64,000 nt of DNA from Macrostomum lignano (lineage: Eukaryota): contig NIVC01001651.1 of NCBI GenBank assembly GCA_002269645.1, positions 186,001-250,000 on the forward strand. Reading direction: 5' to 3'. Under the pieces are notes generated by a model. That model made no database searches. It saw nothing but the letters and a program-made list of their open reading frames with translations, and was not told the DNA's origin. Numbering within the stretch: position 1 is the first letter of the stretch; each line of letters starts with the position of its first letter. This document shows, in pieces, positions 6,250 to 32,020 of this stretch. Position numbers and translations under genes: made by a program.

Positions 6250-8039
6250 AACTGGACTCCATCAAAATTCTCTCCGTGAAACTGGACTCCATCGAAATTC
6301 TCTCTGTCAAAAAGAATCAACTCTCAGGATTCATTGGTTAGGGTTAGGGTTAGAGCTATACACAGCAGCGTGTTGAAAGGGGCCAGTAAACAAATTGAAC
6401 AAATTTTATTAATTGAATGTACAACCAATTTCTTCGTCAGTCAGTATCAGTATTAGTTAAAGTTAACAAAAAATTGCGCAATCTAAATCAGCCATCCAAT
6501 CTGACAAACCCCCTTTCACTGTGCAGTGGCAGTTAGAAATTGAAACCCCCCAACTATTGGGGTGTCGGTTGAATCCCCATTGAACCCCAAAATGAGTACA
6601 CTCTACAGAACGTTTAAAGTATGGAAATATTTTTTCAAATGCTGTGCTTTTACTTTTCACATTTAAAGCAAACAAATTATATCCCCAAACTTAGCGTTGC
6701 AAGCTCTTTCCAGCAATTTAAGTCTCTCCTCTCAAAATTCAAATCTCGAGGAGCAGTTAGTGTTTGAAATTTCCCGATTTAAAGCATTGAAGTATAGCGT
6801 GTACATTCACCTGCCTGCTACTGCTAGCAGTAAGAGGCTCGCAAGTTTATTCATTGAGTTTCACTGCCCAGCTAATACACAGCCTTTTGAAAGACGCTGA
6901 TAATAAAACCTAATTGAATCTCGACACAGTCTTATCTATCTGTTTACACTGTACATTGCTATGTACACTCAGCCCAAACCAACCCCCTCCCCTTATTCCG
7001 TGGGAATCATTAAATTTTACTGCACCCCCAACATGCAGGGGTTTTATTAGCATTGAACCCAGAACACGCGTCACCCACCCCTCCAATACACAGCGGCCCG
7101 CGGGGGGAGGTTAGGGAGGTTGTTTTTACAATTATGCCACGACCCCTCCAGTGAAGAGGCAAAGTGGCCAAAGAAGGTTAAGAAAACAGTTTTTGTTTTT
7201 TTTAACGGACTTGACTTTTAATTTTTCAACATTAAAATAGCCTATTTGTTGCATAGGAAAATTCTGCATTGATATGTATAAGTCCCAAATTTGAGTTGCC
7301 AGCCATCTATGAGGAGATACGCGTTAAACCCAGATGGTCGATTGATTGATTGACCCATTTAGCTTTAGATATAAGATAGCCTAGCAAAGCTTTCATTGGC
7401 TCAGCTTTCTTGATTCTAGTATTTAAGACTTATGGAATGGCTATAGTGAGCTTGCCACTTAGGTATGCTATGCTATCCCATCCAGCTATTCTAAATGTCT
7501 CTATTCTATTATTGTATTATATTCTATCATTATTTAGGACTAAACTTATTATATTAGACTATAATATAACCTAAATAAAATATACTTTAATAGACCTAAG
7601 CCAACTAGGTGTAAGACCAAGATGGCCACACACCAAGATGGCCACAGCTGGGGTGGGGGTCACGGAAAATGACAGCTGGTTTACTATTGGATAGCTTTGG
7701 GTGGGGAGATGTGGGGTTGCAATGGGGCGGTTTAGACAGGCAGTCAAAATTTTATTAGCATATTTCAGGGCTAAAGACAAAAATGGTTACGAGTCTTAAT
7801 TTCCTACTTATAGTAGGGCCCTAAGAGGTAAATGTATTTCGCATTAAACAAATCTCTTCTTCATATAAAATCTGGTGTAGCTTTTTTCCATTTCTCTTAT
7901 TGGTCGAGACTAATTTACTTGTTCAAAGGGATAAAAACTGGGTAAATTTCATGCCCTGTTCAAAATTCATCTGTCTCATTCACTGACAGCAGTCTAAGCA
8001 TTTAGATATAAAATGGCTGGCGCATATCCATGTGTGGTC

Positions 8040-8934
8040 ACTACTATATGAACCCGTATCCGTTGATTTTGGAGGGGGGTGGGTGTCAACCCTCCTCGCC
8101 TCTCATTGGCTGGCGCCCCGATCACTAGGTGATCGATACCCGTATCGATATCGGCGCTCGGCGCGCGCGCGCCGCAGGCGCGTGGCGCCAAGCGCCGTCC
8201 AGCCGCAGGCGACCCTCCCGAGCCACCGGCGACCCTCCCCAGCCGCAGGCGCACCTACCGATATGTATGCTCACCCTACCGACATGTACCCCGATATGTA
8301 CACCCTCCCGAGCCGCAGGCGCACCCTCCCGAGCCGTAGGCGCCCATGCCGCAGACGCCCATGCCGCAGGCACCCCGAGTGTACACTCTACCGAGCCGCA
8401 GGCACCCCGAGTGTACACTCTACCGAGCCAAAGGTACACTCTACCACTCTCCCGATATGTACGATATGTAGTCAACGATATTAGGCTAGTGAAAACTACT
8501 TATAGTAGGTGAAATTGAGTATATTTACATAAAAATGTAGATAAAACATATTGGTAGGTGAATAATGACGCATATTGCATATTAAAATGTACATATTGGA
8601 GCATATGAGCAGCAAAAACACACAATGTAGGTGCATGGGCAGAAATAGACAAAGCAGGTACTGTAGGCGCTACATAGGTGGAAATACACACAGCAGGTTT
8701 ACAAAGTGTACTTTCGATACATATCGGATTAATGTATAAAGCAGGTTTACAAGGCATGCATAAGGTGTAGTTGTATAATACAGGCACGCATGTATAATCA
8801 GATTATAGGCAAACGCCCAGGTGCAACAGACGCGTAAATAATGTCACACCGACTAAAGAGTAAATATTGTCTAACCCGCAGGTGCATAAAAATTTTAAAC
8901 AAAAGCGGTTCGGGGAAATCCCAAAAGGGAGGTT
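8040..8934 (+). repeat. Left terminal inverted repeat (895 bp)
   Basis: Starts ACTACTATATGAACCCG and is the reverse complement of 16555-17449. The mirrored ORF translations of 95, 116 and 127 aa are identical. Confidence 0.95.
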
Positions 8935-9291
8935 CACGGCCTAATGACCCGATATACTTTCAACACAATTAAACCCACAAGTGGGCTAGAAAAATGGACA
9001 ACGTATTTCGATTGCGCTATCAGTACGCTAATCAGCGCAGCAAGTTCATGTCAGGAGTTCTACTCCAAGAGGCGGACCGCTGGGCCACAAACCGCCCCGA
9101 GGGAATAGGTGTCAAATGGGAGTTTTAACACTTGAGGGGATCCCGCTCAATGTACAGTGGAGGTGCCAAATGAGTAAGGACCCCTAAGTACAGTGCGGGC
9201 GTAAAACCATTTTCATCCCCACGAGTCAAGGGATCCCAAGTGGGCACATAGGGGAATCCCAGGCGTGCAAAGACAGATCCTTATCTTTCAC

Positions 9292-12200
9292 TCACTCCCG
9301 AAAGCCATACGGGCGGCTAGCGGCCCCATACACCCTCTTAGTCATTACGCGCTGGAAAGTCTTGTCCATCTCGAGGGTCCGGATTGTACAGCTAGCCTTA
9401 TCGCGCCTGAACTGGGCCTGGGGCAGGCGTACAGTCCCGCCGTGACGCAGAATTTCCTGCAGCTCGTCCTCGCGCTCGGAAATCTCGGGGTGACTCTGAT
9501 GCCCTTGCACTTGAGCACCGAGTACAGCGACCCGTCAGGCTTCTCCACCACGTACCGGTAGAGCTTGGGGCCTCCCGTGGTGAACTGTACCATGCGGCAG
9601 CCGCAGGTACCTCGTCAGTCCACTGCCCCAAACTCGAACCGCCCGGAGGCTCGTACTCGCCCGGAGAGCAGCGGTATACGACCCTGGGAGGAGGAGAAGG
9701 ATAAAGTGTTAAGGGGAGAAAGAGAGACAGAGACAGTTGAAAAAATTACTCACGAATCAGTATCGGCGTAAATGACGCGGGTTCCTAGACCCTCCAGAGC
9801 CTCGTAGAGTCGCAGCCGGGCGTGGGAGGTGGTGAAAACGCCAATAGGTACATTAGCGTACTTGAACGCCCGCTCGCCAGCACCGCCAAATCGGGGCTTG
9901 TACTCGAGCATCATGAAGCTCTCCCCAATTGGCTCGCACGACTTGACCTTGATCGAGGGGTCGGTCAGGCGCTGCAGCCACGCCTCGTAGCTGTCCACAA
10001 TCTCTGTGGAGGTCAGGTCGTCGCGCTGGCAGAATTTGCCCCAGAGCCTGCAGGGAAAAATAAATTTTATGTAAGTAGAAAAACACGGCCCCCACTGCAA
10101 GTAGAAAAAACTTACGAGTTTAGAAAAATCTTGGCCACAAAGCGCAAGCCAGGATTCTCCTCCACCTTTTCCAGCCGGACGCCTTCGCGCTCGAAAAAGC
10201 TGGCCATGTAGGCAGCCTTGGCGTCCTCAGCCATCCCCGGCGAACCGCTAGACTCGGCTTTGAGCTTCAAAAAAGTGTTTACATAATCTGCAAACAGGCC
10301 CGTGCGAGTCTCGGTCCAATAGGCCAGGGCATGAACTGACTGCAGCTTGTAACCCAACTGCAGGGCTTTGTGGAGCTCTGGGGTCGACCACGTGCCGCGG
10401 AGCATTCTCTCAGCGTCAGTGTGTGTACACTCGCTGCTGCACTGGGTCTCCATGCAGACGCGGCAGAGGCCGAAAACCAACTTCTTGTTAATCTTGGCGG
10501 GCAGTAGCGGGATGTGGAGATTGGTTGGCGGCAGAATCGACACCTCGGCGATGCCAAAATACCGGGCCAGCTGCAGCTCATCCAGTAGATGAGGCTCGGG
10601 GTGGTGTACCGGGTGCCCGACCGGGTACTTGTCAAACTTGTTGACAGTCGGGTAGAGCGACACCTAGGGGATAAGGATAAGATAAACTCAAACGCATGTC
10701 AACTGTGTGTGTGTACAAGTGTACAAACTTACCACATCCCGATAGCGCAGCTCTACAGTCTCGGTGGCCTCGGCGTGCGGGACAAAAGCCTCGGTACGGC
10801 CGCCAAACAGGGCATCCTCCAGGCGAATAGGCTGCTGGACTGGCGCTCCCTCGTCCTGATAGTCGTGCTCCCACAGAACACGCACATTGTATGCAGTGGA
10901 GAGCAGCCGGGTGAAGCGCTCAGTCTCCTCATAAATTGCCCGCATTGGCTGGTTCTTGAGCGGGTGCAGCACGTCGCCGTTGGGGAAGCACTTGGGACAG
11001 CCATGGAAGAAACAGCCATGAAACTGCAGCACTGTCCTGGTCTCTGGGTCGAAGCCGTCGACCTTACGGCCCATGGCGAAAGCCTCGCCGCCAGAATCGG
11101 CTGTCCGCAACCGGCCGCCAAACTCGGTTGCATTTAAATGTGCCAGCCAGCACCGCGCCTTGTGCGACTGTACATCGGACCGGCGGGAAATCACCCCAAG
11201 AGTGTTGGGCTCCATAAACTTGGTGGTGAATACCGACATGGCCAAGCCCGCAATGGTGTTGGATTGAACAAATGCGTCCAGTCCGCAAATGTCCTTAATC
11301 AGGCGGGCATATTTCAGGCAGCCTTCCCGCAAAATTAACGTGTCCTGCAGGCAATAGTCCAGGTACGCCTTATTAAAATTAAACACCTGTCCTCCTGCTT
11401 GGCCAGCCAGTCGGCGATGGAGTCATGCTGCTTATTCTTCTTCCCGCCGTACATATCAATTGAGCAGTAGGGACCGACGTACCCCCAATTTTGAGGCTGA
11501 TTGAAACGTGCGGGAAATCTCCTTTGGTCAGTTGGGTGCCCAAACCAAGCGCCTTTGGGAATTGCGCCAGACCAATAGGGATGAAATTGAGGCTGTCCTT
11601 GAAGGTGATCTTGTCGCACTTCATGTACATTAGGCGGCTGTTCTGGAAGATCACCTGCGGCTTCTTCTTGGCCAGTCCGTTGAGTAGGGCGCCGAGCAGG
11701 AGGAATGCGTCATACGCAGAGCCATTGTGCGCAATAGCAATTGCCCCCTGCTTGAACACACTAGTCAGCCAGCAGTAAAATGCATCGATAGAGTGCGGCC
11801 CGACAGATACAAACTCTCGCATCCCACAGGCACAGTCATTGTGCGAGACACAGCTCGTGAAATCCAGCGCCAGATTGCGTCCCGCAATGCAATTGGCTGA
11901 GCTGTGTAGTCCCCCGCACGCGCTGCAGCGGGGCCTGGGGAAGAGTTTGGGACACGCCTCGCAGGAGGTGGCAGCCGTAACCAAGTGTACCCGGTGCTGC
12001 TTGCCAGAGTCCACGTACGTCTCGAAATCATAGTAAACATACGGGGCGCTAGACTCTTTGGCTTTGGGCGGGGTGACAAAGCACTCGTGGGTGGCAGTTT
12101 CGTCGTACTGCTTGCAGACTGGGCACTTGGCGTAACCACACTGATGCTCAGGGGGCTGGCCTACTTTTAGTTCTTCTAGATAGCCACACGTGCCGCAAAC

Positions 12201-14335
12201 GTGGACCGAATCACAGCGCGATCTGCCGGCCTTATTCTTGCGCTTGTGATTTTCTAGGCACTGAGCATTATAGCAATTTAGCCCGCAATCATGGCATCTT
12301 ACATATGCGCGGTTTGCCTTACAGTTGGAGCCCGGAGTCTTGCATGTACTGCAGGCATCAGCGCACTTGTGCTTGGCGGGTTCGCTATCATAGGCCATCT
12401 CGCACTTGGGGCAGTAGTGGTGGCTGCCGAAAAACGCAGGCAGCTTGGTAACCACATTAAAGTGCTGCTCGACCAGGTGTAGGTGCAGAATCTCGGTGCC
12501 AGGCAGGTTGAAGATGCACCTGTTGGCCTCCTCTGCGCGGTACACGCGTATACCAAAATCGTGCCCTGGATGCAGCCGGTTCAGGGCTCGGATCGCTTCG
12601 GGCAGTGCATCCACCCCGAAAGGACCGGCCTGCGAGACGGTTTGAAGAGTCTGTGTGGGGGGTAAAATATTTCTTTTAGTATTCCCTGATACTATGTAAA
12701 ATTCTTTTAGTATTCCATGATACTGCGTAAAAATTCTTATCAGAAAATATATCTTTTAGTATTCCACGATACTGTGTAAAAATTATTATCAGAAAATATT
12801 AGTATTCCATGATACTGTGTAAAAAATTATTATCAGTACACAACTTACCGTGTAGAGGCCAGCTTCGATTTGTAGCTCAGTCGCAAGCTTAGTCTGCTTG
12901 GACGAATTGGCCTTGATCGTGCGCCACACCTGCTCGCTGATGGACTTGGCCACGAATTGCAGGTAGGCGCAGGCCACGACCAGAGCGCGCAGCAGGCATC
13001 TCTTGTCCGAGTTGGTGATGCGGACATAGTGCCTGGAGAAGGCGTGCCGCTCTTCTAGATGCTTGTTCTCGAGAGCACATCCACCTCGAGGCACCCAGGC
13101 CTTTAGCAGACGGACAGAAAAGTTGCCTGACAATACAGTGGCATCCGACTGCACAATCTTGTCAATGTGCTTAAACAACAATTCAGCCGTCATGCGGGCT
13201 GCACGCACCGGGGGAGTGTGGGCCGCTTTGAGCATGTTGTCGCTCTCGAATTTCGCGGCCATAAAGTCATCACCAGCCAAATCTTGCTTGAAAACTTCGA
13301 GCATGTCAGCAAACACCTCCCGCAAATCTTCGGTGTTGGTAATACGCACCACATACTCGACACCCTTTGCCCTAAACTTGGGCAGGTCACGCTGATTATC
13401 CAGCCGGGCCGTAAAACCTGCATGGGGGAATGGGGGAGTGTGAGTCAGCCCGGGTCTGTGTGGGAAATGGGGGGCGGGATAACTCACCCGGTCCGGTAAC
13501 AGATTCCGGCTGTGTTGGCGGGACAAACGCGTCTGAAAAAACACAAGGAGATAAAAAACCAGAAGAATCTGTCATTTTCCTGGCCCCAGCGTGTTTCCCG
13601 CCCTAGCCCCAGCAATTTCTTAACAGAGTTTACTCTGCTGTCCCCGCAGCAACTCTCTGCAATTTCTTATCTGCACCCCCGCTGCAGCCTGTCGCAGCAG
13701 TCTTTGTTTACTCACCCCTGCAACTCTCTGTCGCAGCAATTTGCACCCCAGCTGCAGCCTGTCTGGGTAGCGCCCTATCTGCAGCCCCAGTCTGTCCCAG
13801 CAACTCTCTGCCCCCACCCGGCTGTAACTTGTCTAGCCTGCCCCAACGATTCTGCAGCAATTTCTTATCTGCCGCAGCACCCTAGCAACTGTCTGTTTTT
13901 GCAGCAATTTCTTATCAGCACACCCCTCCCTGTCTAGACAACACCCCACCCCAGTCTTTGTTTACTCACCCCTGCAACTCTCTGTCGCAGCAATTTGCAC
14001 CCCAGCTGCAGCCTGTCTGGACAACACCCCCCTAGCAGCAATTTCTTATCAGCACACACCCGGCTGAAACTTGTCTAGCCCTCCCCTGCAACTCTCTGTT
14101 ACAGACCCTGCCGCAGCACCCCACCCTAGCAACTCCAGTCTAGACCCCTGCAGCTGTCGCAGCAGTCTTTGTTGTTTACTCTGCGGTCCCACAGACCCTG
14201 CAGCTGCTGCTGCTGCTCAGCCCCTACCCCCACCCTAGCAACTACAGTCTAGACAGAAATTAATTAAAACTTACCATAAAGACGTTGCCTCTTGTCAGCC
14301 AGGAAAGCAGTTGCGGTGGCGCTGCGTTTAGCCAT
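9292..14335 (-). CDS. polB: Protein-primed family B DNA polymerase (pPolB), 7 predicted exons: 14335-14275, 13532-13488, 13417-12849, 12629-10733, 10663-10116, 10047-9754, 9683-9292; ~1,269 aa after correcting four 1-nt deletions
   Basis: Exonuclease motifs YYDFET, AHNGSAYD and YCLQD; GGRTE; pol motifs DV|VSLYP, KIFLNS|LWGKF and YADTDS|VVY; GGPKLY, KCKGI and a terminal KR..PYGF. GT-AG junctions have consistent phases. There is a Cys/His-rich N-terminal region and a VSR-like insert (VDGFD...FHGCFFHGCPKC). Confidence 0.93.
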
Positions 14336-14523
14336 TTTGCAAACAGAGAGCGTGAGAGAGCGAGCGGAGAGAAGGATTATCTCTCTACCCTGGCTCTGGG
14401 GGTCTGTATATATACTAAAAAATCTGCTCAGCTCGCCTGTTATTGGATAAATCGCCAAAAACCAACCAAAATCATCAAAAATCACCCCCAAAATCATCAC
14501 CCACCCCACCCTCCATCCGGGGG

Positions 14524-14530
14524 TATATAA
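14524..14530 (+). promoter_or_regulatory. TATA box in the divergent promoter between pPolB and the PC4-like gene
   Basis: TATATAA ~50 nt upstream of ATG 14577. A TATATATA run at ~14407-14414 could serve the pPolB gene (ATG 14335) on the opposite strand. Confidence 0.5.
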
Positions 14531-14576
14531 GGCGCTGCACGGCTGTCAGAGAGCTCTCTGCTGCTGCTGCTAAATC

Positions 14577-15110
14577 ATGTCTTCTATCTCTCTATACGAA
14601 AACTTTGTGGCGCGGAAGCCCACATTTGAAACTGAACACAACTTGATTGAAATTCGGCGTCTCTACACCAACGAGGCTGGAGTGTGGAAGGACGGCTTCC
14701 CTGCAATCTACTTGGCCGAGCCAGAGTGGAAGAAGCTCGAAGCTGCGCGCCCTGACCTGGAGGCTGCTGCCCGCCTTCACGTGAACAAGCGGGTCCTGTT
14801 GGGCAATTTCAAGGCAGTTGAAGCTTCGCGAGGGAGGATCCGTTTGCTGCGCAATTGGCTCAATCAGGACCCAAAGTTTAATTGGCGCTACACGATCGAA
14901 TTCACGCCTGAACTGTGGCGCCGGATGTTTGCCGCCCGTTTGGACAAGCTCTTCAAGCCGGCACCTGAGGCACCCCCTCCAGCCAAGCGAGTCAAGACAG
15001 ACACGCCTCCGGTAGCCGGGACTGAGGTGGATGTTCTTCAGCTCATGGGTCTCAAACCCTACCAATCTCCACCCTGGGAAAATCTGTTTAACGAGGGTTG
15101 GGACTGCTAG
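14577..15110 (+). CDS. Tandem PC4-like (Sub1/PC4 fold) ssDNA-binding protein, 177 aa
   Basis: FV..FE..IEIRRLYTNEAGVWKDGFPAIYLAEPEWKKL matches the PC4 pattern dIR.yy...G..kP..kGI.L..eqW..L. A second weaker repeat reads LGNFKAV...IRLLRNW...IEFTPELWRRM. Confidence 0.65.
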   Translation: MSSISLYENFVARKPTFETEHNLIEIRRLYTNEAGVWKDGFPAIYLAEPEWKKLEAARPDLEAAARLHVNKRVLLGNFKAVEASRGRIRLLRNWLNQDPKFNWRYTIEFTPELWRRMFAARLDKLFKPAPEAPPPAKRVKTDTPPVAGTEVDVLQLMGLKPYQSPPWENLFNEGWDC

Positions 15111-15226
15111 TTTCCTATTGGTTCGCACCGCCTCACTCGATCCGTCTATATAATTAGTGTTTCCCCCCTCTCCAGAGAGTCAAACCCTATCTCAGCTCTA
15201 ATACTTTACTCTCTGTTGATTCTAGC

Positions 15227-16240
15227 ATGTCCCGCCGAGCTCTATCCAACCTCTGGGATAATAATCGCCCGACTGAAGAGTTAACCAGCCTCGACGGGGA
15301 TATCCCTGAACACATAGTTCCCCTAGGCACTGAAAACAACGGAAGTGATAATTGGGAGGCTGATCAATATCTAGCTTGGGCTATGTCCTATGATAGCGAC
15401 ACCGAGTCTGAAGTTTTTGACCTCCCGCTGCTGGCTATCGGCGGGGTTGTGAACGGTGCCCCTGCTGCTACTGCCTCCGATTTGACTACCGCCTCAGCCG
15501 CCCTCTTTGACGTCTCTGTTGAGGAGCTGACCACAACCGGCCCTGCCTCTGCTGCGCCCGTCTCTGCTGCTGCCGCCTCTACTACGCCCGTCTCTGCTGC
15601 TGCTTCAACTACCTCCCACCGGGCCTCAATATCATCAGCCGCTACGCTCCTTCTCTTCGACGACGAGGACGAGGATATGTCTGAGGAGATCGCCGTGGTT
15701 CGTGAGCGCTTTCCTCGCATTGTGGCCTCATTTTTCCGCGGGACATTGACTGGCTGAGGTCTCGGCATCCTGGCGGGCTGCCCTCCCAAGCTACCTTTGT
15801 CAGAGCCTTTAATCGGGTTCTTGATACTTTGGTTGCGAGGGGTGCCGGCCTACGGGAGGTGTTGGAGGCTGAGACTCTGCACCAGGACTGGTTGATGGGG
15901 CGCAATTCGTATGCCCCCGACTCTGAGGCGTACCTGGCCGGTCCGGGAGCGCGGCCAACTGCGTGGGATGAGCCCGTCGCATGGCCCTCCAACTGGGAGG
16001 AGCACCTTTCGTTGGTGCGCTATACAGCGTCTCTACGTCTGTGGCGGCTGGAGGACGATTTAGATTTGGTAAGATATTACATTATATACACAACTCATCT
16101 AATCATATACCTTGCATATATTCTATCTACATTGACTGTTATAATTTCCACATTGCCAGTCATCCGACTACTGCTTCGAGAGCGTGGAGGAAGAGGCCGC
16201 GTACGAGACAGCCCTGAGGGAGCGTATGGAGATTGACTGA
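15227..16240 (+). CDS. Acidic, Ala-rich orphan protein (~307 aa; exons 15227-16068 and 16160-16240; one 1-nt deletion near 15735)
   Basis: ORF 15227-15757 joins the frame of ORF 15829 by a -1 shift (SFF-PRDIDWLRSRHPGG). A GTAAG...CCAG intron (16069-16159) gives a phase-0 continuation SSDYCFESVEEEAAYETALRERMEID*. Confidence 0.6.
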
Positions 16241-16554
16241 TAAGGGTATTTCTCTTTGTACGCGGTTTGGGGAACCCAACACTGTACACTGGGTAGGTTA
16301 GAATGGGCGCTAGCTGGGGGGCCTCTATGTGTGTATACACGGGGGTTAAAAGACCAATTCTGATAGCTCGCTCCTAGGGAGGAAATTGGCAGAGGGGCCG
16401 GCCCAAAAAACTGAAATGGGCTGGCCCCGGGCTCGAGTCCACCCACCTAAAATATGGAGGGTCATTACAACCTAATGACTCGAAATACTTTCAACGCAAT
16501 TGTACCTATAAGAGGGTTAGGGCGGCGGCGGCGGTGGCGAAAACGGGCGGCTAA

Positions 16555-17449
16555 AACCTCCCTTTTGGGATTTCCCCGAACCGCTTTTGTTTAAAATTTT
16601 TATGCACCTGCGGGTTAGACAATATTTACTCTTTAGTCGGTGTGACATTATTTACGCGTCTGTTGCACCTGGGCGTTTGCCTATAATCTGATTATACATG
16701 CGTGCCTGTATTATACAACTACACCTTATGCATGCCTTGTAAACCTGCTTTATACATTAATCCGATATGTATCGAAAGTACACTTTGTAAACCTGCTGTG
16801 TGTATTTCCACCTATGTAGCGCCTACAGTACCTGCTTTGTCTATTTCTGCCCATGCACCTACATTGTGTGTTTTTGCTGCTCATATGCTCCAATATGTAC
16901 ATTTTAATATGCAATATGCGTCATTATTCACCTACCAATATGTTTTATCTACATTTTTATGTAAATATACTCAATTTCACCTACTATAAGTAGTTTTCAC
17001 TAGCCTAATATCGTTGACTACATATCGTACATATCGGGAGAGTGGTAGAGTGTACCTTTGGCTCGGTAGAGTGTACACTCGGGGTGCCTGCGGCTCGGTA
17101 GAGTGTACACTCGGGGTGCCTGCGGCATGGGCGTCTGCGGCATGGGCGCCTACGGCTCGGGAGGGTGCGCCTGCGGCTCGGGAGGGTGTACATATCGGGG
17201 TACATGTCGGTAGGGTGAGCATACATATCGGTAGGTGCGCCTGCGGCTGGGGAGGGTCGCCGGTGGCTCGGGAGGGTCGCCTGCGGCTGGACGGCGCTTG
17301 GCGCCACGCGCCTGCGGCGCGCGCGCGCCGAGCGCCGATATCGATACGGGTATCGATCACCTAGTGATCGGGGCGCCAGCCAATGAGAGGCGAGGAGGGT
17401 TGACACCCACCCCCCTCCAAAATCAACGGATACGGGTTCATATAGTAGT
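16555..17449 (-). repeat. Right terminal inverted repeat (895 bp)
   Basis: Ends CATATAGTAGT, followed by TSD GTGGTC. Confidence 0.95.
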
Positions 17450-18119
17450 GTGGTCTGTCTGCAGCCAGTTTGCGATGGACAAGAAGCAATTGAGTGTTCT
17501 CAATGCTTGAATTGGCAGCACCGCATGTGATAGTCGCGTCACAATCGATCAGTATTCTGCAATGAGAAATGTCGGTGAGTTTTTCTGGCTTTGCAATCAA
17601 TGCAATAGACGGGCTCCTGCAGGTAACTTAGCAGTGTCTCAAGCTGCAGATGCTGCAGTGTTACATGTACAAGCCCCGAATTCTGGACCAGCGGCTGTTC
17701 CTCTGCCTGCTGAAAATCCAGAACCAGTGCATTTGATTCCGGCACAAGCAGAAAATTTTCTTTACCAGTATCCAGATTTCAATAACCCTGATCCAGCTCT
17801 GGAAGAATCCATTCAAATTCCTCCAGCAGAGCTTGCACCGCCCCGCAGCCCAACTCCCAAGCCCTTTGAGATTCTTACAGGTGCAGGATGCAGTCACGGA
17901 AAAGACCTTCTAGTGCAGTATGCCCAACGAGACCTTGGCCATCTGATGGATGAAAAAACGCGGCCAAATGGCAACACGTACTATCGCTGCATATACTGAT
18001 ACTGATACCCAAGTACTGATACCCAAGAGACGCAAGGCTTCAATCAAAGTCTGACAATTCTGAAATCTCGTCAAAGTAAGCCGAACCTCTAAATACATGT
18101 ACAGATACAAGTCTGATAC

Positions 18120-21023: not shown

Positions 21024-21150
21024 CCAAGACCTACGGCTAGGCCACCTGAGACAAATAAGAAACCACCAACAACAGCAACTGTACTTCATTTTACTTAGTC
21101 TAATTTCACTAACGAAATCTGTTTTCTCCGAGACTTGAAGCTACGTCATA

Positions 21151-23047
21151 CCACCCGACCAGCATGGATTTAATCGGTAGAAAAGGTAACGTTTTCTACG
21201 ATTAGATAGGGTAGATGGCATGTCGACTGCCAGCATAACATGCTTTCCTTCTGATTAAAAGCGGACTGTATATACTTGTATTGGGCAGTTATGGCGCGCA
21301 ATTCAAAAGCCTACGCACAACCAATATTATAATGGCTCGACATATTTAATTAGTATAGGGCATTGTGTTAGTATGTATGAATTCAAGACCTAGACTAATA
21401 AAGCATGAGTTTGTGTCTATAGAGTCGAAAACTTTGGAAATGTGTCGCCCTAGCTTGCACAAAAAGCCATGTATGACATGACTGAATGAAATTTAATTAG
21501 GAGGTTAATGATTGTAAAATAAACTAGCTACTTGGACCTCTTGACAATAAGGATGAAATGGTCCTGTTGCAGGCAGATATATATTTTAATTGGGCTTAAA
21601 AAAAAAGAAAAAGCTTGATGGCTAGCTAGCTAGGTGGCCTTGGCTCACCCAGTTATTGGCCTTATATTGGCCTTCTTATCAATATGTGGGCCATTTTGTA
21701 CTGCATTGTGCTTTAATCTACTTTGTTTTTCTTCTTTATTGCCAGGTATTTAGTATAATTTTTTAGCTCTTAGTTGTATTCTTTATTTTAATATCACTCT
21801 ATACTTGTACCATGAAAAGACACACAAAAGGCCTTGTCAATTTTAGGCCTATGATAGGTAGCTAGCTATGTTATTTTATTTTAGTAATAGGCCTATAGCT
21901 ATTAAGAGTAGGCCTACTAAATTATTAGTCTATAAAATGTATATGGTCTAAAATAGGCTAGCTATTTTAGACCCTATTATATTTTATGCTTCTTGTCTAA
22001 CAATCTAATAATTGTTGTAGGCCAATATTATGAAATGTATAGGCCTAGCTATAGAAAAAGAAAAAGAAGCCAATAACCTTCCTAATGAATAAATTAATTA
22101 ATATTAGTTCAGTTGTGTATTTACTTTATATTTATTGTCATATGAATTATATACTTATAAGACAGAGTTTTGATTTTTATAGATAGAGATTGCATTTAGC
22201 CTAGGCCTATCTACTCTAGTCTGCCTATCCTCTACCTATGTCTGTTCTCTCAATCATTATATTTTTACTTTTTCCCTCTCTTAATTCCTTTATATCATGC
22301 TTCTCAATTATCTCCCATCTTTGCCCCTCCCCAATTCCCTCCTATCCTGCCCACCCCCCAATTCCCTCCTATCCTGCCCACCCCCCAATTCCCTCCTATC
22401 CTGCCCACCCCCAATTCCCTCCTATCCTGCCCACCCCCCAATTCCCTCCTATCCTGCCCACCCCCAATTCCCTCCTATCCTGCCCACCCCCAATTCCCTC
22501 CTATCCTGCCCATCCCCCAATTCCCTCCTATCCTGCCCATCCCCCAATTCCCTCCTATCCTGCCCATCCCCCAATTTCCGCCATCCTGCCCCTCAATCTT
22601 TTCACCCTTGGGTTTTAAGCTATAAACCCAAGGCAATTCAAAATCTGGAAATGAATTTCAAATTGGAAAATTGAATTCAGCATTTCAAGCACCTTTCAAA
22701 AAGGCAAAACTATAGAGCTAGAAAATATGGAACTATTTAACTTCCTTAAGTTCAATAAGTTATAGTTGGATATTGCCAACTCTTTTCCAGGTGCCTCTAT
22801 CTAGCTAATGCTAACAAAAATGTTGCAAGGTGTACTTTAATATTATATTTGTTCTAGTAAGCAGTTTTTCTGTGTCTCCCATTCTACCCCACCTTTCCCT
22901 CCCGTTCTACCCTTCCATTCCTTCCCATTCTACCCCTCCATTCCCTCCCATTCTACCCCCACCATTCCCTCCCGTTCTACACTTCCATTCCCTCACATTC
23001 AACCCCCTCCATTCCCTCCCATTCTACCCTTCCATTCCTTCCCATTC
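21151..23047 (+). repeat. Left TIR of KDZ element (~1.9 kb, includes C-rich minisatellites)
   Basis: Reverse complement of ~30148-32020, with a few substitutions and small indels. Confidence 0.9.
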
Positions 23048-23316
23048 CCACCCCTCTGCTCTTTCCTACCCTCCTCCGCTCCACCCTCTCCCACCCAACT
23101 CTTTTCTACCTTCTCCTATACCTCCACCATCTCCGCCCTCTTCCGCCCTCCCATACACCCCTCGCCCTCTCCCACCCTTTCCCGCCTTTTTTGAAATCCC
23201 ACCACCCTCTCCCACACCCTTTCGCTCTCTCCCATCCTCTTCCGAAAGGCTGGAAGGGGGTTTTTCTGATTGCAATTTCGATTACATTTCCAGTGCTACT
23301 GCCATTTTCGAAAGCT

Positions 23317-25836
23317 ATGGGTCGCCATGGCAAAGTTCGTAAAAGAAGTACGTGGTCCATGTTTGTAAAGCTAAGAGGATCTAGTAAGTATTGCGTTTCT
23401 GTTATGGAGAAGTTTTGAAACTAGTGAGAAACATTTAATGTTTGTTTTATTTAAAATACTTAAATTTCGAAAATAGTGACGTGAGAATCAGCCTCCGGCT
23501 GCTAGAGCTGCTTCGAGGCTTCGTCTGCTGTCATACGATTCTGATCCTGGTTTGATTTAAAATACTTACATTTCTCATTCAGACGGATTTTCGAAAGACC
23601 GCATGGCCTTCTTGGCAAACGAATTTAAACAACTGACCTCTGAGGACAAGGCCGTCCTAGAAAATGCCGCCAAGGAGGCGAAGCAGCAGTGCCTATCGCG
23701 TTGTCCATCAAGCCTTGAGCTGGAAGAAATGGTAATCACAGATAGCGACTGGTATGGTAATCGTCCCGGAAATATGGTGAATTTTCTATCAGAAATCGAA
23801 GTTATAGATATGTGATCCAGTGAGGTGGCAGTCGTACTCTCACTGGTTATGATATGACCGCTGATTCGCAGTTTTCAACAATTGTATAGCTAGATTGAGT
23901 CCCGGCTCATAACCGTTCTTGTTACATATCCCAATTCTATCCCAAAGCTAAAAATAAGATCCGAGCTGCATTATCCCAATTTGGCCTGCGTAGATAAACA
24001 ATCCTTCAATATTTAGCTCAATGTCGCACTCAAATTGCACACACATAAATGCGTACATTAGTAAACAGTTTGCTGTTCCCCCCCCCCTCAATAATAACTT
24101 ATTACGCACATACTACCCCAGGCCCGTGCAATGTTTTATAGCCAGGATCTGCTGAGCATCTGTAAATCTGCTTATTCACTTCCAGGCACGAGGACTGTAT
24201 GCTGATTACCACATCTTACTGATAGTCAAGAAGCGCAACGGCTCAAGCTTTCGCACTTGTGCGTCTCCCGAAGTCGCAGGACTTCTAAACGAAAATTCTG
24301 GACTTTTACAAGTAGGTCAAAAATTTCCAGAGTTGTTTACGGACCTTTATCTACAGATTCTCCAATTATCTACGATGGGTACAATTCTTTCTTTTTATTA
24401 CACGAGGGTAACCTGGCGCAACGCCTTGGGTGACATCATTTCAAAGCCAGCACGGAGGCAATTCCGCCCATTCCGCTGACTTTGAGCACACACACGGATA
24501 CGTACGCAGGTGCACACTCACATAGAGGTATACATCTGCTCTGACTTTCTCGTCGGCAGGCATTTTTACCACTGCCTGGGGGTTGGCCTAGTGGCATAAA
24601 TCGCACAAGCCCCAGGTGGCCATCCGCCCCACAAATTAATGTACTGCGCTGCAGAATTGAGCCCAAGAATTATTCGTGGCAGTCCGATTCGTTACCGCTC
24701 GGCTACTTAGTCCCCTAAGATATTATAAAATTCTAATATTTCTAAGGTGCACATTATAAAATCCATCTATTTAGCAATGCATATGTTTGCAGCATTACGT
24801 ATATTTTTCGCTTGCTTCTTCGTTACAGAAGTTCGACTTACTGAGTGCTGGCCTGGCAGAGCCTTCCACTCGAAAACCCACGGTTGAGCACATGCGCAAA
24901 GAGGTTCGGGCATCAGTTCGCATGGCATATGGTGAGATGACAATATTGCTTACTTGTTGGCTTGTGTATTTTCCACTTCGCTTGTTTAATTCAGCTGTGA
25001 CTCAAGGCTATAGTGGAAGCGCGAGCTCTCTAAAATCTGGCGGACCATTTTCATCAGTTGCTTTTGTGGCTATTTTGTGATCGCAATCAGTTTGTTCGAA
25101 TCCATATTACAGGCTTCATCTATTACATTCTTTCTCAGCTCAAGCCGGAATGGGCGCCAAGCTGAATTTTAAAAACCTACGTGGCGCATTCTTCCCGAGC
25201 ATTAAAAATCCTGCGGAGATGAACGCCGCAGAGCTTCGGGAGGCGTATGAATCGCGTGGCCACTTACGATTCATCCGCATCGAGTCTGAGAATCGGCCTC
25301 CGGCTGCTAGTGCTGCTTCGAGGCCTCACACGCTGTCATCCGATCCTAATCCTGCGTCCGACCTGTGGCCGGTCGGTGCTGCTGCCCAGGCCTTCAGGCT
25401 CAGCTCGGACTCGGCCGGTGGATCTGCGGTCATCGTCGGTCGCGGCTCGGCCGGCGGATCTGCGGTCGTCGTCGGTCGCGGCTCGGCCGGCGGATCTGCG
25501 GTCATCGTCGGTCGCGGCTCGGCCGGCGGATCTGCCGTCGTCGGCGGTCGTGGCCCGGCCGGCGGATCTGCGGTCGTCGGCGGTCGCGGCTCGGCCGGCG
25601 GATCTGCGGTCGTCGTCGGTCGCGGCTCGGCCGGCGGATCTGCGGTCGTCGTCGGTCGCGGCTCGGCCGGCGGATCTGCGGTCGTCGTCGGTCGCGGCTC
25701 GGCCGGCGGATCTGCGGTCGTCGTCGGTCGCGGCTCGGCCGGCGGATCTGCGGTCGTCGTCGGTCGCGGCTCGGCCGGCGGCTTCGCTACCGTGACTGGC
25801 GTTGGCAGCTCCAGCGAGGGGACTATGCTGTACTAA
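23317..25836 (+). CDS. Multi-exon HMG-box-like accessory gene inside the KDZ element (internal exons only partly resolved)
   Basis: Exon 23317-23383 spliced (phase 1) to 23583 gives KVRKRSTWSMFVKLRGSNGFSKDRMAFLANEFKQLTSEDKAVLENAAKEAK, an HMG-box pattern. Further likely exons lie at ~24200-24311, ~24830-24930 and 25139-25836. Confidence 0.55.
25410..25782 (+). repeat. 36-bp GC-rich tandem repeat, ~10 copies, in frame (SAGGSAVVVGRG)
   Basis: Visible in the DNA and in the ORF 25150-25836 translation. Confidence 0.95.
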
Positions 25837-26055
25837 AGTGCTGTTTTCTTCCTTATTTTTGTAACGGACTGAGATTAAAACAGGGTTGAAAGAACACGCA
25901 TTTTGCATTGCTGTCGTTTTTTTTTCGTGGCGTCCTGGAAGTTATTCGACTCCCTTTCGGTTTTAGGAAACTCAATGTCATTCCGATACTCTATGCAAAA
26001 TCCCTAGTACTTTTACATATATTTACATATAGTTCAATTTCTCAGCTCAGTATGT

Positions 26056-29000
26056 TTAGTGTTTTGCGCTTAGGAACTTCTGCGGACACATGAGCCTTTG
26101 GTGTTTCTTCCACGGCTGCACAGTCAGTGGAAAGGGCCTGGCGGTGTGGCTGTCGAGGCGTGAGTAAATTGACGACGACGGATCTCCCAGATCTTTCAGC
26201 GAATACTGACAGCCACTAGATTCACGCAGCTCACTCATCTCCTTACATAGTACATCTGCCTTGCGAGTGAGCAGTCGAGCCTGGTGCGACCCTGGATGTG
26301 ATAGAATAGGGTAATTAAGTTTTTAAAAGTTAAAGTTTTAAGCGAAAAAGTTTTTTATACAAGGCAATTAAAATACACACCAACTAAGAAGAGCGAATAA
26401 GAAGGCAATGCCGACTGTACCTCTCGTGAAATCAAATTTTAATATTTATGCGACATACCTATGCAGCGGTTCAATTCGCTTAACGTCCGCCGCTTCTCAA
26501 CTGCAAGTCGACGCATTTTTGAAGCCAATCGCCAGTACGCAGAAGCGCCGCACGAGCGTCTTCGCGGAGCCATTGCTGACCTAGATGCACCAATTGCTCA
26601 GTGGTGAAACCTAAAGTTTTTAATAACATAATAATTGGAACCTAGATAATTTTACATATTTGTAAAATATCATATCCAGTACGTGAATATTGCCGAATAT
26701 TGCAATTTTTAACTAACCCGACTGTGAAACGATTCCCTGAATTTCACGGACGTGCTGATCGATTAGCTTCTCTTTTTTCGAAATTAGTTTTTCCCTGGAT
26801 TTCAGCCATGAATCTGAAAAGGAAAGGCAAGAACCAGTAAAATACAAAAGGCAACTTTTCAACAACGCCAGTAATGAATGGGTTTTCAGTTTCACAGTGA
26901 TTTCGCAGGGAGCCAATTAAGTCATGTCCAATCACACCACCAACAGACAATTATCTCAACAAAAAATTGGACTATTATCTCAGCAAATAATTATATAAGT
27001 TAACATTTTCAGCTATTATATAGTGCACATGAGATGTGACCTATTAAATAGAATGCTAACCAGGATCCAGACGCAGGTGGTACATTCCGATGATATGCGC
27101 GATAAGCCTGGTGCGCCTATCAATGCGCATCTCCTTCAGGATGCGCCCGTATGGGCGCAAGAGCGAGAAAATGCGTTCGCAGATTTCTCCGTCAGTGATA
27201 CCGGTACCAGGCGTAACGCGGATAGAGTTGTTAAGCTGGATCAAATAAATTTTAAGAAAATCGGTCTCAGGCTACTAGTCTTACTTAAGTGAACCAGCTG
27301 CAGCAACACAATAAATTTCTAATTCCTTTGAATTTAAAACTTCAAAAATACTTAAAACACGCACCGCTCTCCAGGAGTGCGCACGTCAGAGCAAGCCCAA
27401 ATAAATCCGTGACGACATGCAATAATAAAAAAGCCTTTGACGTCCAGCTTGGAGGATGTGCGACAGACATAAGATGTTTCTCCTGCAGTCCAATTCGGGC
27501 AGGCGCCATGAGCAGGCGCAATGACTTGACCAGAAAGGTCAACACGCGCAAACGGGAACGGAATTTCTCCGTCTAGGGGCTCATCGCTAACGTCAGCACC
27601 TGCAGCAGATCTACGCCTCCATCCCATAAGAGCGTCGCCGTGCAAGATAGGTCCCTGTCGAAAACAAGTTTATGGCGTGAATTTGTACTACATTCATCTT
27701 CCTTACCCGCTACATGTGTTTTCGTCTTGTCTTACCACTTCACTAGATCGGCAAAGCGTACACTCGGAAGGAAATCTTGCGACTTGAGCTAAAAAAGCTC
27801 TATACAAGCCGATGGTGTTGTTGCGCAGAAGATCGCTGTACAAATCTCGCTGCGGTGTGTAGTTTAAGAGAAGTGTTATAAGGATTAAAAGAGTATAAGA
27901 CCAGAAAATATAGACAACTTAAAAGAAAGACTAGTGTTTTATGTCTTGCGTCAATAACTGCCCTATTTACACCTTATTTTCTTGTCTCGCAGTCAGCTTT
28001 AATAAATGATGGATGAAGGAAAAATAAGAAACTCACCCCCGAGGCGCTGCCCAAAACAAATTCTTCTATCTCCAACGACGGCACAAGCCTTTGACAGCGA
28101 TGTGATTCCATTGACCATGATGGAATCCAACGTATTTAATAGTTCGAACGACACGAAGGTCAAGGTGCTGTCGGAAGTTGGAAAATAGTTTAGGGCAACC
28201 ATGAATTCTGAGCAATGCTGAGTATCGCATGCGTCGATCACAGTCGAATGGTAACCTGCAAAAGGAGAAGCAGAAGAAAACAACCATCTACGTACATCAC
28301 TAAGTTTTTTATGTTCAATAATCAGCCCACGTGCTTATGAGCAGAGCGTATAAAATGATACAAATAATCTGAATCCATAAAAAAAACATATCTCAAATGA
28401 GCACCCCAGCGCTAAAATTATGTTACCCATATTTAATAAGGAAATCTAATTATTAACAGCCTAGGAATAGAGACAGAATGAATATATCGTGTAACAACGA
28501 ACGAGACTTTCCTCCATAAGCATCCAAAAGTTGCACTTTTAAGGATGAGCCTGGAAAGCAGCCACACTTAAACTTGGGAGGCAGGTCGAGAAGCTCACCA
28601 TTCTAAAAAGCAGAGTTAGGATTGGATGAGTAGAGATAGTGATTTGTGGGCGTGGATTGAAGGGATTGGGGAATATATAGGAATAGAAGGAATAAATAAG
28701 GGTGGATGGAAGTAATTCAGAGATTAGTCACAACGTCTTTAACACATTTAACTGACATTTAATTTGGACAGTAAAAACATAAAAAACGCCGCACATGCAT
28801 TACCTGGAACATAGAATGCACGAGACCTTTATGGCGACTAGCGGCACATTTTGTGCAGAAGAAGGCTGCACATTGTGGGCAGTATATCGAGCCTAGGCTC
28901 GTACACTCAGCGCAAGTACCGATCTCGACAGCCCTTAAGAAGGCTGCGAGAATTCCTGGCCTGGTACTAGCCCTGACATCTTCCCAGTCAGAAGGCTCTC

Positions 29001-29170
29001 CGTTAGCGTGGCTGCTATCTGCCAATGGAACGGGCTCATCTTGGACAATGCTGTCCAGTACCTGAGTAGCAGTCAGAGTCTTTTTCAGCTCTTGATTCTT
29101 CCTAATGCCAGCCAAGAGTGCTGTGCGACCATTTATTCGCACTCGTAATTATTTCTTTGAGCGGCTCTGA
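26056..29170 (-). CDS. KDZ/Zisupton-like transposase, multi-exon, possibly defective
   Basis: CxC-like segment YFPTSDSTLTFVSFELLNTLD; LHGDALMGW; KLDVKGFFIIACRHG...PGE; PGTGITDGEICERIFSLL...EMRIDRR (KDZ CrH, GE and TDGE..ER motifs). The N-terminal C..C...C..C...FC..C...H is B-box-like. Confidence 0.72.
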
Positions 29171-29394
29171 AAGGAGTATATAGAAACATTGCAGAAAAAA
29201 TATATGCTAATTTATGCCCTAGTCTTTTAACCTTACGTAACCCAACACTATTGTCTATTAATAACTGACAGCCAACACATTCCGCATCTTTCTGCTCTCC
29301 AAGACTTCAACGAATACTCCCTCAGGATATATAATAGCTACTTAAAATATATACTAATGCAAAATATTATTAGCAATTAGCTATTCAGGAGACA

Positions 29395-30320
29395 GGGTAG
29401 AACAGGGTAGAATGGAAGGGTAGAATAGGAGGAAATGGAAGGGTAGAACGGGAGGGAATGGAGGGGGTAGAATGTGAGGGAATGGAAGGGTAGAATGGGA
29501 GGGAATGGAGGGGGTAGAATGTGAGGGAATGGAAGGGTAGAATGGGGGGGAATGGAGGGGGTAGAATGTGAGGGAATGGAAGGGTAGAATGGGAGGGAAT
29601 GGAGGGGGTAGAATGTGAGGGAATGGAAGGGTAGAATGGGAGGGAATGGAGGGGGTAGAATAGGAGGGAATGGAAGGGTAGAACGGGAGGGAATGGAAGG
29701 GTAGAACGGGAGGGAATGGAGGGGGTAGAATGTGAGGGAATGGAAGGGTAGAATGGGAGGGAATGGAAGGGTAGAATGGGAGGGAATGGAGGGGGTAGAA
29801 TGTGAGGGAATGGAAGGGTAGAATGGGAGGGAATGGAGGGGGTAGAATGTGAGGGAATGGAGGGGTAGAATGGGAAGGAATAGAAGGGTAGAATGGGAAG
29901 GAATGGAAGGGTAGAATGGGAAGGAATGGAGGGGGTAGAATGTGAGGGAATGGAAGGGTAGAATGGGAGGGAATGGAGGGGGTAGAATGTGAGGGAATGG
30001 AGGGGTAGAATGGGAAGGAATAGAAGGGTAGAATGGGAGGGAATGGAGGGGGTAGAATGTGAGGGAATGGAAGGGTAGAATGGGAGGGAATGGAGGGGGT
30101 AGAATGTGAGGGAATGGAGGGGTAGAATGGGAAGGAATAGAAGGGTAGAATGGGAAGGAATGGAAGGGTAGAATGGGAGGGAATGGAGGGGGTTGAATGT
30201 GAGGGAATGGAAGTGTAGAACGGGAGGGAATGGTGGGGGTAGAATGGGAGGGAATGGAGGAGTAGAATGGGAAGGAATGGAAGGGTAGAACGGGAGGGAA
30301 AGGTGGGGTAGAATGGGAGA
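29395..30320. repeat. G/A-rich minisatellite (GGGAGGGAATGGA[G/A]GGGTAGAAT-type units)
   Basis: Dozens of ~24-bp degenerate units, continuous with the inner end of the right TIR. Confidence 0.9.
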
Positions 30321-32020
30321 CACAGAAAAACTGCTTACTAGAACAAATATAATATTAAAGTACACCTTGCAACATTTTTGTTAGCATTAGCTAGATAGAG
30401 GCACCTGGAAAAGAGTTGGCAATATCCAACTAGGCCTATAACTTATTGAACTTAAGGAAGTTAAATAGTTCCATATTTTCTAGCTCTATAGTTTTGCCTT
30501 TTTGAAAGGTGCTTGAAATGCTGAATTCAATTTTCCAGTTTGAAATCCATTTCCAGATTTTGAATTGCCTTGGGTTTATAGCTTAAAACCCAAGGGTGAA
30601 AAGATTGAGGGGCAGGATGGCGGAAATTGGGGGATGGGCAGGATAGGAGGGAATTGGGGGATGGGCAGGATAGGGGGGAATTGGGGGGTGGGCAGGATAG
30701 GAGGGAATTGGGGGTGGGCAGGATAGGAGGGAATTGGGGGGTGGGCAGGATAGGAGGGAATTGGGGGTGGGCAGGATAGGAGGGAATTGGGGGTGGGCAG
30801 GATAGGAGGGAATTGGGGGGTGGGCAGGATAGGAGGGAATTGGGGAGGGGCAAAGATGGGAGATAATTGAGAAGCATGATATAAAGGAATTAAGAGAGGG
30901 AAAAAGTAAAAATATAATGATTGAGAGAACAGACATAGGTAGAGGATAGGCAGACTAGAGTAGATAGGCCTAGGCTAAATGCAATCTCTATCTATAAAAA
31001 TCAAAACTCTGTCTTATAAGTATATAATTCATATGACAATAAATATAAAGTAAATACACAACTGAACTAATATTAATTAATTTATTCATTAGGAAGGTTA
31101 TTGGCTTCTTTTTCTTTTTCTATAGCTAGGCCTATACATTTCATAATATTGGCCTACAACAATTATTAGATTGTTAGACAAGAAGCATAAAATATAATAG
31201 GGTCTAAAATAGCTAGCCTATTTTAGACCATATACATTTTATAGACTAATAATTTAGTAGGCCTACTCTTAATAGCTATAGGCCTATTACTAAAATAAAA
31301 TAACATAGCTAGCTACCTATCATAGGCCTAAAATTGACAAGGCCTTTTGTGTTTCTTTTCATGGTACAAGTATAGAGTGATATTAAAATAAAGAATACAA
31401 CTAAGAGCTAAAAAATTATACTAAATACCTGGCAATAAAGAAGAAAAACAAAGTAGATTAAAGCACAATGCAGTACAAAATGGCCCACATATTGATAAGA
31501 AGGCCAATATAAGGCCAATAACTGGGTGAGCCAAGGCCACCTAGCTAGCTAGCCATCAAGCTTTTTCTTTTTTTTAAGCCCAATTAAAATATATATCTGC
31601 CTGCAACAGGACCATTTCATCCTTATTGTCAAGAGGTCCAAGTAGCTAGTTTATTTTACAATCATTAACCTCCTAATTAAATTTCATTCAGTCATGTCAT
31701 ACATGGCTTTTTGTGCAAGCTAGGGCGACACATTTCCAAAGTTTTCGACTCTATAGACACAAACTGCTTTATTAGTCTAGGTCTTGAATTCATACATACT
31801 AACACAATGCCCTATACTAATTAAATATGTCGAGCCATTATAATATTGGTTGTGCGTAGGCTTTTGAATTGCGCGCCATAACTGCCCAATACAAGTATAT
31901 ACAGTCCGCTTTTAATCAGAAGGAAAGCATGTTATGCTGGCAGTCGACATGCCATCTACCCTATCTAATCGTAGAAAACGTTTACCTTTTCTACCGATTA
32001 AATCCATGCTGGTCGGGTGG
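30148..32020 (-). repeat. Right TIR of KDZ element
   Basis: Mirror of 21151-23047. Confidence 0.9.

Follow-up and report, generated by a model that had tools for sequence, protein, structure and literature searches.

A Polinton of Macrostomum lignano that appears to be divided over two separately integrating segments

Introduction

Where are the integrase and capsid genes of an element that has the ends, the target-site duplication (TSD) and the polymerase of a Polinton, and only three genes? The question is raised by the element at positions 8040-17449 of a 64,000-nucleotide stretch of the genome of the laboratory flatworm Macrostomum lignano (assembly GCA_002269645.1, contig NIVC01001651.1, positions 186,001 to 250,000 of the forward strand; hereafter the window). 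An earlier note, made from the sequence alone, had suggested either a replication-only satellite or linear-plasmid replicon, or one part of a bipartite Polinton whose partner carries the integrase and capsid genes between the same terminal inverted repeats (TIRs). We consider it very probable that the element is segment A, the replication segment, of a bipartite and mutually dependent Polinton, with segment B, the integrase and capsid segment, residing elsewhere in the genome. The split has strong genomic support. A and B occur as distinct multi-copy units that integrate separately, each with a 6-bp TSD of its own, and their gene sets are complementary. That each would depend on the other is suggested by their sequences.

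Results

Segment A and its partner

The copy of segment A in the window is 9,410 bp long and belongs to a family that we call A1. It has perfect 895-bp TIRs, a 6-bp TSD and three genes, one of them for a protein-primed DNA polymerase B (pPolB) and two further open reading frames (ORFs):

8034..8039, no strand: left TSD, 6 bp, the same hexamer as 17450-17455
8040..8934, plus strand: left TIR, 895 bp, starting with a tandem ACT trinucleotide; 100% complementary to 16555-17449
8040..8071, plus strand: terminal 32 bp common to the partner segment, including an 18-nt copy-variable block; 32/32 identity to both ends of partner copy G000:C110:177048-187602
~14327-9292, minus strand: pPolB, 7 exons; Pfam PF03175, exonuclease and palm motifs, spliced junctions in putative RNA runs
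14328..14576, no strand: putative divergent promoter; a motif scan placed TATA-like boxes near 14407-14414 and 14524-14529; putative RNA contigs lie over both flanking genes
14577..15110, plus strand: ORF2, 177 aa, predicted PC4-fold protein; Pfam PC4 (E 0.19), structure model, Foldseek
15227..~16240, plus strand: ORF3, orphan, acidic, low-complexity, two exons, intron about 16069-16159; no family match
16555..17449, minus strand: right TIR, 895 bp, complement of the left TIR
17450..17455, no strand: right TSD, 6 bp, matching 8034-8039

The TIRs, TSD and three genes are as the earlier note had described them, and the element is a real insertion, since the flanking frame is continuous across the TSD: the flanks join into one PHD-finger-like ORF (Pfam PHD E 0.042, weak). 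This insertion target (8013-8039 and 17456-17999) consists of the PHD-finger-like ORF, with stops, and then a frame ending in what we take to be a FLYWCH-like motif, and is possibly a decayed Mutator-type element. The TIRs and TSD satisfy the Polinton/Maverick ranges, which the accessible part of 10.1101/2023.08.22.554363 gives as 100-1500 bp and 5-8 bp, at element lengths of 13-25 kb. Also in agreement with the earlier note, a Pfam scan of the element and tblastn with the partner's proteins detected no integrase, capsid, ATPase or protease; the tblastn queries, which covered the whole window, were the capsid, minor capsid, ATPase, protease and integrase proteins of the partner, and no query had a match. 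ORF3, for which an integrase or a capsid protein had been considered, matched no family, these two included, in the Pfam scan, a further family search and the tblastn comparison. Neither a parvovirus-like capsid nor a superfamily 3 helicase appeared in the Pfam scan of segment A.

A1 is a mobile family. A genome search with its TIR returned 16 end-paired copies among the best 40 of 320 candidates scored, 14 of them 9.3-9.7 kb long, and distinct 6-bp TSDs were present in 9/9 pairs with both ends located (a tenth pair lacked one end). The several 9.4-kb copies with different TSDs that would speak for mobility as a unit are therefore present, and we reject the idea that the element is a single-copy deletion of a Polinton. 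With one pPolB exon as query, 56 A1 polymerase loci were found at ≥88% identity (all 134 candidates scored), leaving out fragments of one locus and short weak matches. Such locus counts are not copy numbers, because some insertions have been assembled twice, with identical flanks. A shorter class with A-type ends, 4.13 kb long, has three copies (G000:C1923:7214-11345, C1242 and C1300:338559). In the first of these a TSD is present, genes are not evident and pieces of B-type TIR lie in the interior; this non-coding class is a satellite of the two-part system.

The terminal 18-mer of A1 also bounds a separate 10.5-kb class in the same genome, which we call B1. In copy G000:C110:177048-187602 the 32/32 terminal bases are as in the window element, and the TIRs are unrelated beyond them. 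Of the 232 candidates of an end search the best 40 were scored; they included 15 end-paired B1 copies, 14 measuring 10.45-10.56 kb, with TSDs in 6/6 copies checked. B1 has genes for a major capsid protein (MCP), for an RVE integrase that ends in a chromo-like tail and for a Fic protein, a TBP-like ORF, and candidates for a minor capsid protein, an ATPase and a protease. The pPolB pieces matched neither B1 nor B2, its counterpart in a sister family (see below). A second class of insert with integrase and MCP (and a putative ATPase and protease) and no pPolB thus exists, as the bipartite alternative of the earlier note had foreseen, although only the outer ~32 bp are common to the two classes and not the whole TIR. 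We disfavour the satellite or linear-plasmid alternative, since what segment A carries is just what is missing from the partner.

The rve profile matched at E 7e-9 in B2, which passes the Pfam cut-off, and at E 6e-4 in B1. A structure model of the B2 MCP (pLDDT 87) had PBCV-1 and mavirus capsids as best structural matches (E 1e-17), and the B1 MCP is 85-91% identical to it; on the strength of the model, with the fold confirmed on the B2 protein, the B capsid is a double-jelly-roll MCP. The MCP frame is open in 15/21 near-identical B1 copies and the integrase frame (379 aa) in 9/28. Candidate B ORFs with Walker-A and His/Asp/Cys motifs occur in the usual gene order, with weak profile matches or none, and the labels putative ATPase, protease and minor capsid are ones that we assume from motifs and gene order. 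Sequence searches of the PDB with the putative ATPase and protease were uninformative. The TBP-like ORF of B1 (L032:1610-2146) falls just under the Pfam cut-off (E 9.5e-5). B1 further has a small orphan ORF (L032:3291-3674) beside the Fic-domain gene (L032:3679-4485, E 7e-14), and neither of these two was seen in the one B2 copy read.

Matched ends and a variable block

Two end patterns gave 211 and 183 matches in the genome, against 0 for controls. Between two conserved stretches, a block of 18 nt (17 nt in family 2, the sister family) varies in a modular, mosaic way; the two ends of a copy mostly carry the same block, and in a few copies they differ in it. Read by eye among the matches listed, 7/14 B1 loci have one end that equals an A-type end through the variable block, the A-type copies in five cases being polymerase-bearing, and two further B1 loci are one base off an A-type end. 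As far as a reading by eye goes, these patterns fit sequence exchange between co-replicating segments. The terminal 32 bp (8040..8071) are, from their sequence, the presumed origin of replication and integrase site.

The search for a full-length parent

Within 25 kb of the 56 A1 polymerase loci there is none of the 28 B1 capsid loci, and the 41 A2 polymerase loci (sister family) likewise have none of the 37 B2 capsid loci within 25 kb, so that the 97 polymerase loci have no co-located capsid partner; by eye, 56 integrase loci agree with this separation. The assembly does hold complete elements, since five other Polinton loci, read by eye as a control, have an intronless pPolB 9-13 kb from an MCP. 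These canonical pPolBs are single open frames of 1,211-1,478 aa, and the canonical MCPs are 27-36% identical to the B1 MCP. An MCP of 31% identity is 3.2 kb away from each of two A1 loci (C4072, C2932), and C4072, when read, is a nested insertion: the A1 copy at G000:C4072:13300-15100 interrupts the capsid gene of a Polinton family unrelated to it.

As candidate parents we read two oversized end pairs and rejected both, neither having a capsid or integrase gene: C583 is an A2 copy with retrotransposon insertions and C56 a non-coding mosaic. The latter (G000:C56:643541-661960), 18.4 kb long, has B1-type ends and lacks Polinton genes; it is made up of B1, A1, A2 and mini-element repeats, a product of recombination across segments and families. 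Six further oversized pairs (C106, C126, C271, C485, C2210 and C4) were judged by the locus searches, which placed both modules of one family in none. Polymerase, capsid and integrase locus searches, which give lower bounds, and the oversized pairs together yielded no full-length parent with the same TIRs, the finding by which the earlier note would have recognised a simple deletion.

A and B could still have arisen by reciprocal deletion from a full-length Polinton, one that survives and has been collapsed or missed in assembly, or that belongs to an extra-genomic virus. Their combined length of about 19.9 kb is usual for a Polinton (13-25 kb in what is available of 10.1101/2023.08.22.554363), the assembly consists of 5,269 contigs, and the searches give lower bounds. 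However, the A and B TIRs show no relationship past their outer 32 bp, lengths within each class are uniform, the two oversized pairs read are no parents, and no co-located pair turned up among the 97 polymerase loci. The split is, moreover, repeated in a sister family that is near-saturated at synonymous sites. We regard a hidden parent as very improbable, and return to two segments that replicate and integrate separately.

A sister family with the same split

The sister family consists of ~9.5-kb polymerase units (A2) and ~10.1-kb capsid/integrase units (B2) with their own common end type, and TSDs were present in 3/3 A2 and 2/2 B2 copies. Over 11 stretches on both segments, families 1 and 2 differ by a proportion of synonymous differences (pS) of 0.62-0.84 and of nonsynonymous differences (pN) of 0.05-0.36. 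The MCP is under the strongest purifying selection among the genes compared (pN 0.05-0.08 at pS 0.65-0.70), and intron positions, by eye, look conserved between the families. Because both families are split, synonymous sites are near-saturated and pN is low, the sequences indicate that the split is older than the divergence of the two families and that both halves have been under purifying selection. B2 shares TIR positions 23-49 with A1 (window 8062-8088) at 93%, which suggests that subterminal sequence has been reshuffled between families. One A2 copy lies inside a long ACT microsatellite (L034:1070-1330) with the same unit as its own terminal repeat.

With both families in hand, a different explanation can be weighed, namely that A and B are independent non-autonomous families, each helped by the canonical Polintons of the same genome. 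Complete Polintons with a long open pPolB (1,211-1,478 aa) are indeed present; they meet the A1 family, as the copy in a canonical MCP gene demonstrates; and since canonical ends were not located, this explanation stays under consideration. It does not explain, though, why the ends of A1 match those of B1, and those of A2 those of B2, down to the variable block, nor why the gene sets are exactly complementary, when the canonical MCPs are so distant from that of B1. No A/B-type end was found in six stretches around three canonical copies. We consider help from canonical Polintons improbable, if slightly less so than a hidden parent, and continue with A and B as mutually dependent segments.

Genes of segment A and their expression

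Of the 7 pPolB pieces scanned, 4 matched Pfam DNA_pol_B_2 (PF03175; E 5e-13 to 0.11). The terminal-protein, vOTU and VSR labels that we give to its N-terminal part and to an insert are putative, by motif and by analogy to the available portions of PMC11161782 and 10.1101/2023.08.22.554363. The nearest named proteins are UniRef entries of M. lignano itself (91-99% identity), and the A1 polymerase is 27-38% identical to Polinton polymerases of marine invertebrates and metagenomes. The ORF2 model (pLDDT 73.6) gave human PC4 as all of the top 6 Foldseek matches (best E 0.005, rmsd 2.1), and the top 3 clusters in the Atlas were PC4 as well (0.85-0.86; a lead only). ORF2 is a probable single-stranded-DNA-binding protein, judging by this modelled fold.

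Contigs of four public runs were aligned to the A1 interior; we guess three runs to be RNA and one DNA, none being on record as RNA. Contigs of the putative RNA runs pass over six pPolB introns (about 9684-9753, 10048-10115, 10664-10732, 12651-12848, 13418-13487 and 13533-14274) and the ORF3 intron, all GT-AG; those of the DNA run never do so. For five of these seven introns the skip occurs in each of the three putative RNA runs, for another in two; the 198-nt pPolB intron shows an exact skip in two and a shifted junction in the third, and the ORF3 intron is spliced in 3/3. From this pattern of skipping, the A1 family, through one or more of its copies, is transcribed and spliced. Introns were seen only on segment A; the B genes look like plain frames by sequence.

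In the window copy one-base breaks interrupt the reading frame at five places, four of them in pPolB (~9486, 9602, 11390 and 11505) and one in ORF3 (~15739), and at each of them the contigs of all four runs depart from the window at 51-100% of depth. Across the copies compared, the last pPolB exon is a single frame (11/13), the long pPolB exon lies within a frame of ≥657 aa (18/41 close copies), and ORF3 has an unspliced frame of 336-338 aa (11/16 copies, counting the broken window copy). The breaks are private mutations or assembly errors of this copy. That a dead copy was mobilised after its decay is disfavoured, the breaks being absent from the bulk of the contigs and the frames open in many copies.

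Other features of the window

Further downstream (~21150-32020), a 10.9-kb inverted-repeat element with arms of about 1.9 kb has, besides a B-box-like exon, exons of a KDZ transposase (Pfam E 5.5e-9); it is a Kyakuja-Dileera-Zisupton transposon, unrelated to the Polinton segment. A SARAF-like coding stretch (46054-46614, Pfam E 2e-27) is probably a host gene or a retrocopy, and a frame at 42150-42740, with no Pfam match, resembles a non-LTR retrotransposon fragment.

Discussion

Our data suggest a model in which two Polinton segments share replication and integration through their ends. The polymerase of A, together with the PC4-like protein, would start protein-primed synthesis at the common terminus, on A in cis and on B in trans; in the part of PMC11161782 available, the Polinton polymerase carries the terminal protein and starts at the ends. 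The integrase of B would recognise the same terminus and insert both A and B, and co-replicating segments would exchange terminal sequence, which would keep their ends matched. More weakly, the B capsid would package segments of ~10 kb, which would explain why all four segment classes measure 9.4-10.5 kb.

Several points weigh against this model. Among the matches listed, the first 100 of 211 and the first 100 of 183, 7/14 B1 loci have no exact A-type twin. The capsid search scored 150 of 280 candidates and the integrase search 150 of 293, and their counts are lower bounds. The putative ATPase, protease and minor capsid protein of B had no significant family match. In the stretches examined the canonical Polinton ends were not located, and these Polintons may have a terminus in common with A and B. 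The single A2 copy read is without homologues of ORF2 or ORF3, which spoils the neat symmetry between the families. The transcription evidence covers segment A, the genomic context comes from one species, and the system is known here from assembled contigs, from which complementation, virions and free linear DNA can at most be surmised.

How far the system is a virus is a separate matter. Two packaged ~10-kb segments that meet in one cell, integrate as unlinked proviruses and keep their ends matched by swapping the variable 18-nt block would make it a multipartite integrating double-stranded DNA virus with a double-jelly-roll capsid, an idea that we entertain at somewhat less than even probability. 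Only a little less plausible to us is a variant of the bipartite model in which the two components form a germ-line transposon, with capsid genes in an intracellular role and no transmitted particle. The seven spliceosomal introns of segment A are in line with this variant, as is our finding of no relatives among viral contigs, and the non-coding 4.1-kb elements move with TSDs, so that a length of ~10 kb is not needed for mobility. It is at odds with the strong purifying selection on the MCP, with the 15/21 B1 copies in which that gene is open, and with MCP relatives at 78-80% identity to that of B2 in three other protein clusters (P0121-P0123, on 1.8-3.9-kb contigs from other datasets). These last proteins also mean that a related host may carry the same lineage. 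Eight metagenome loci (31-37% identity to the query protein) are too short, at 1.5-5.8 kb, to say anything on the split.

With or without particles, the bipartite model, which we hold to be very likely correct, implies that replication modules and integration/capsid modules have persisted as two mutually dependent replicons since before the families diverged. The common ends narrow the cis-acting origin and the integrase site to about 32 bp, and nested or tandem contact, such as the A1 copy in a capsid gene, is a proposed route to module exchange. In the full-text literature we found no report of a bipartite Polinton, Repbase and most subscription journals being outside the search, so that prior annotation is possible; the sole full-text match naming both Macrostomum and Polinton is a paper on Tc1/mariner. 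The definition of a Polinton asks for polymerase and integrase in one element. Polinton screens, as described in the portion available of 10.1101/2023.08.22.554363, demand core genes within about 20 kb, and a split Polinton would therefore be filtered out or filed as debris.

Comparison with known systems

The pair resembles Polintons, Mavericks and adintoviruses (Polintoviricetes) in its TIRs, 6-bp TSD, pPolB, RVE integrase and double-jelly-roll MCP, and candidate ORFs for a minor capsid protein, an ATPase and a protease accompany the last two on B. The pair differs in that these genes are divided over two separately integrating units with only the outer ~32 bp in common, the RVE integrase and double-jelly-roll MCP being not with pPolB but on the partner. 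At 9.4 kb (A) and 10.5 kb (B) the units fall below 13-25 kb and only their sum fits, and the A pPolB has six spliceosomal introns, unlike that of the canonical Polintons of the same genome. Each segment alone fails the Polinton definition, and A and B together would supply the Polinton gene set.

Kapitonov and Jurka reportedly described, in 2006, non-autonomous Polinton derivatives with reduced genes that retain ends and TSDs. The 4.1-kb non-coding class is of this kind in its reduced gene content, ends and TSDs. A and B, in contrast, both keep open, selected genes, and no autonomous parent was found for them.

Transpovirons and the mobile replicase modules of polisuviruses are, according to the available part of 10.64898/2026.10.13.758929, repeat-bounded replication modules without morphogenesis genes, and segment A is such a module. 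Those modules, as far as that part goes, have kept an integrase or DDE transposase of their own, whereas segment A is without an integrase and has a matched partner without a polymerase.

Bidnaviridae and the Drosophila Vesanto virus, in the accessible sections of PMC8502044, PMC4061559 and PMC8363768, have segmented linear genomes, a Polinton-derived PolB and matching segment termini. Like bidnaviruses, the system described here has A and B segments with matching termini. In these viruses, on the same sources, the genome is single-stranded DNA and the PolB segment also encodes a capsid protein of parvovirus origin; in the Macrostomum system the double-jelly-roll capsid is on the polymerase-free segment, and both segments integrate with TSDs. 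A Polinton in two segments would be an intermediate, found in nature, for asking how modules for replicase and capsid are reassorted in this virus group and how segmented PolB viruses such as bidnaviruses arose.

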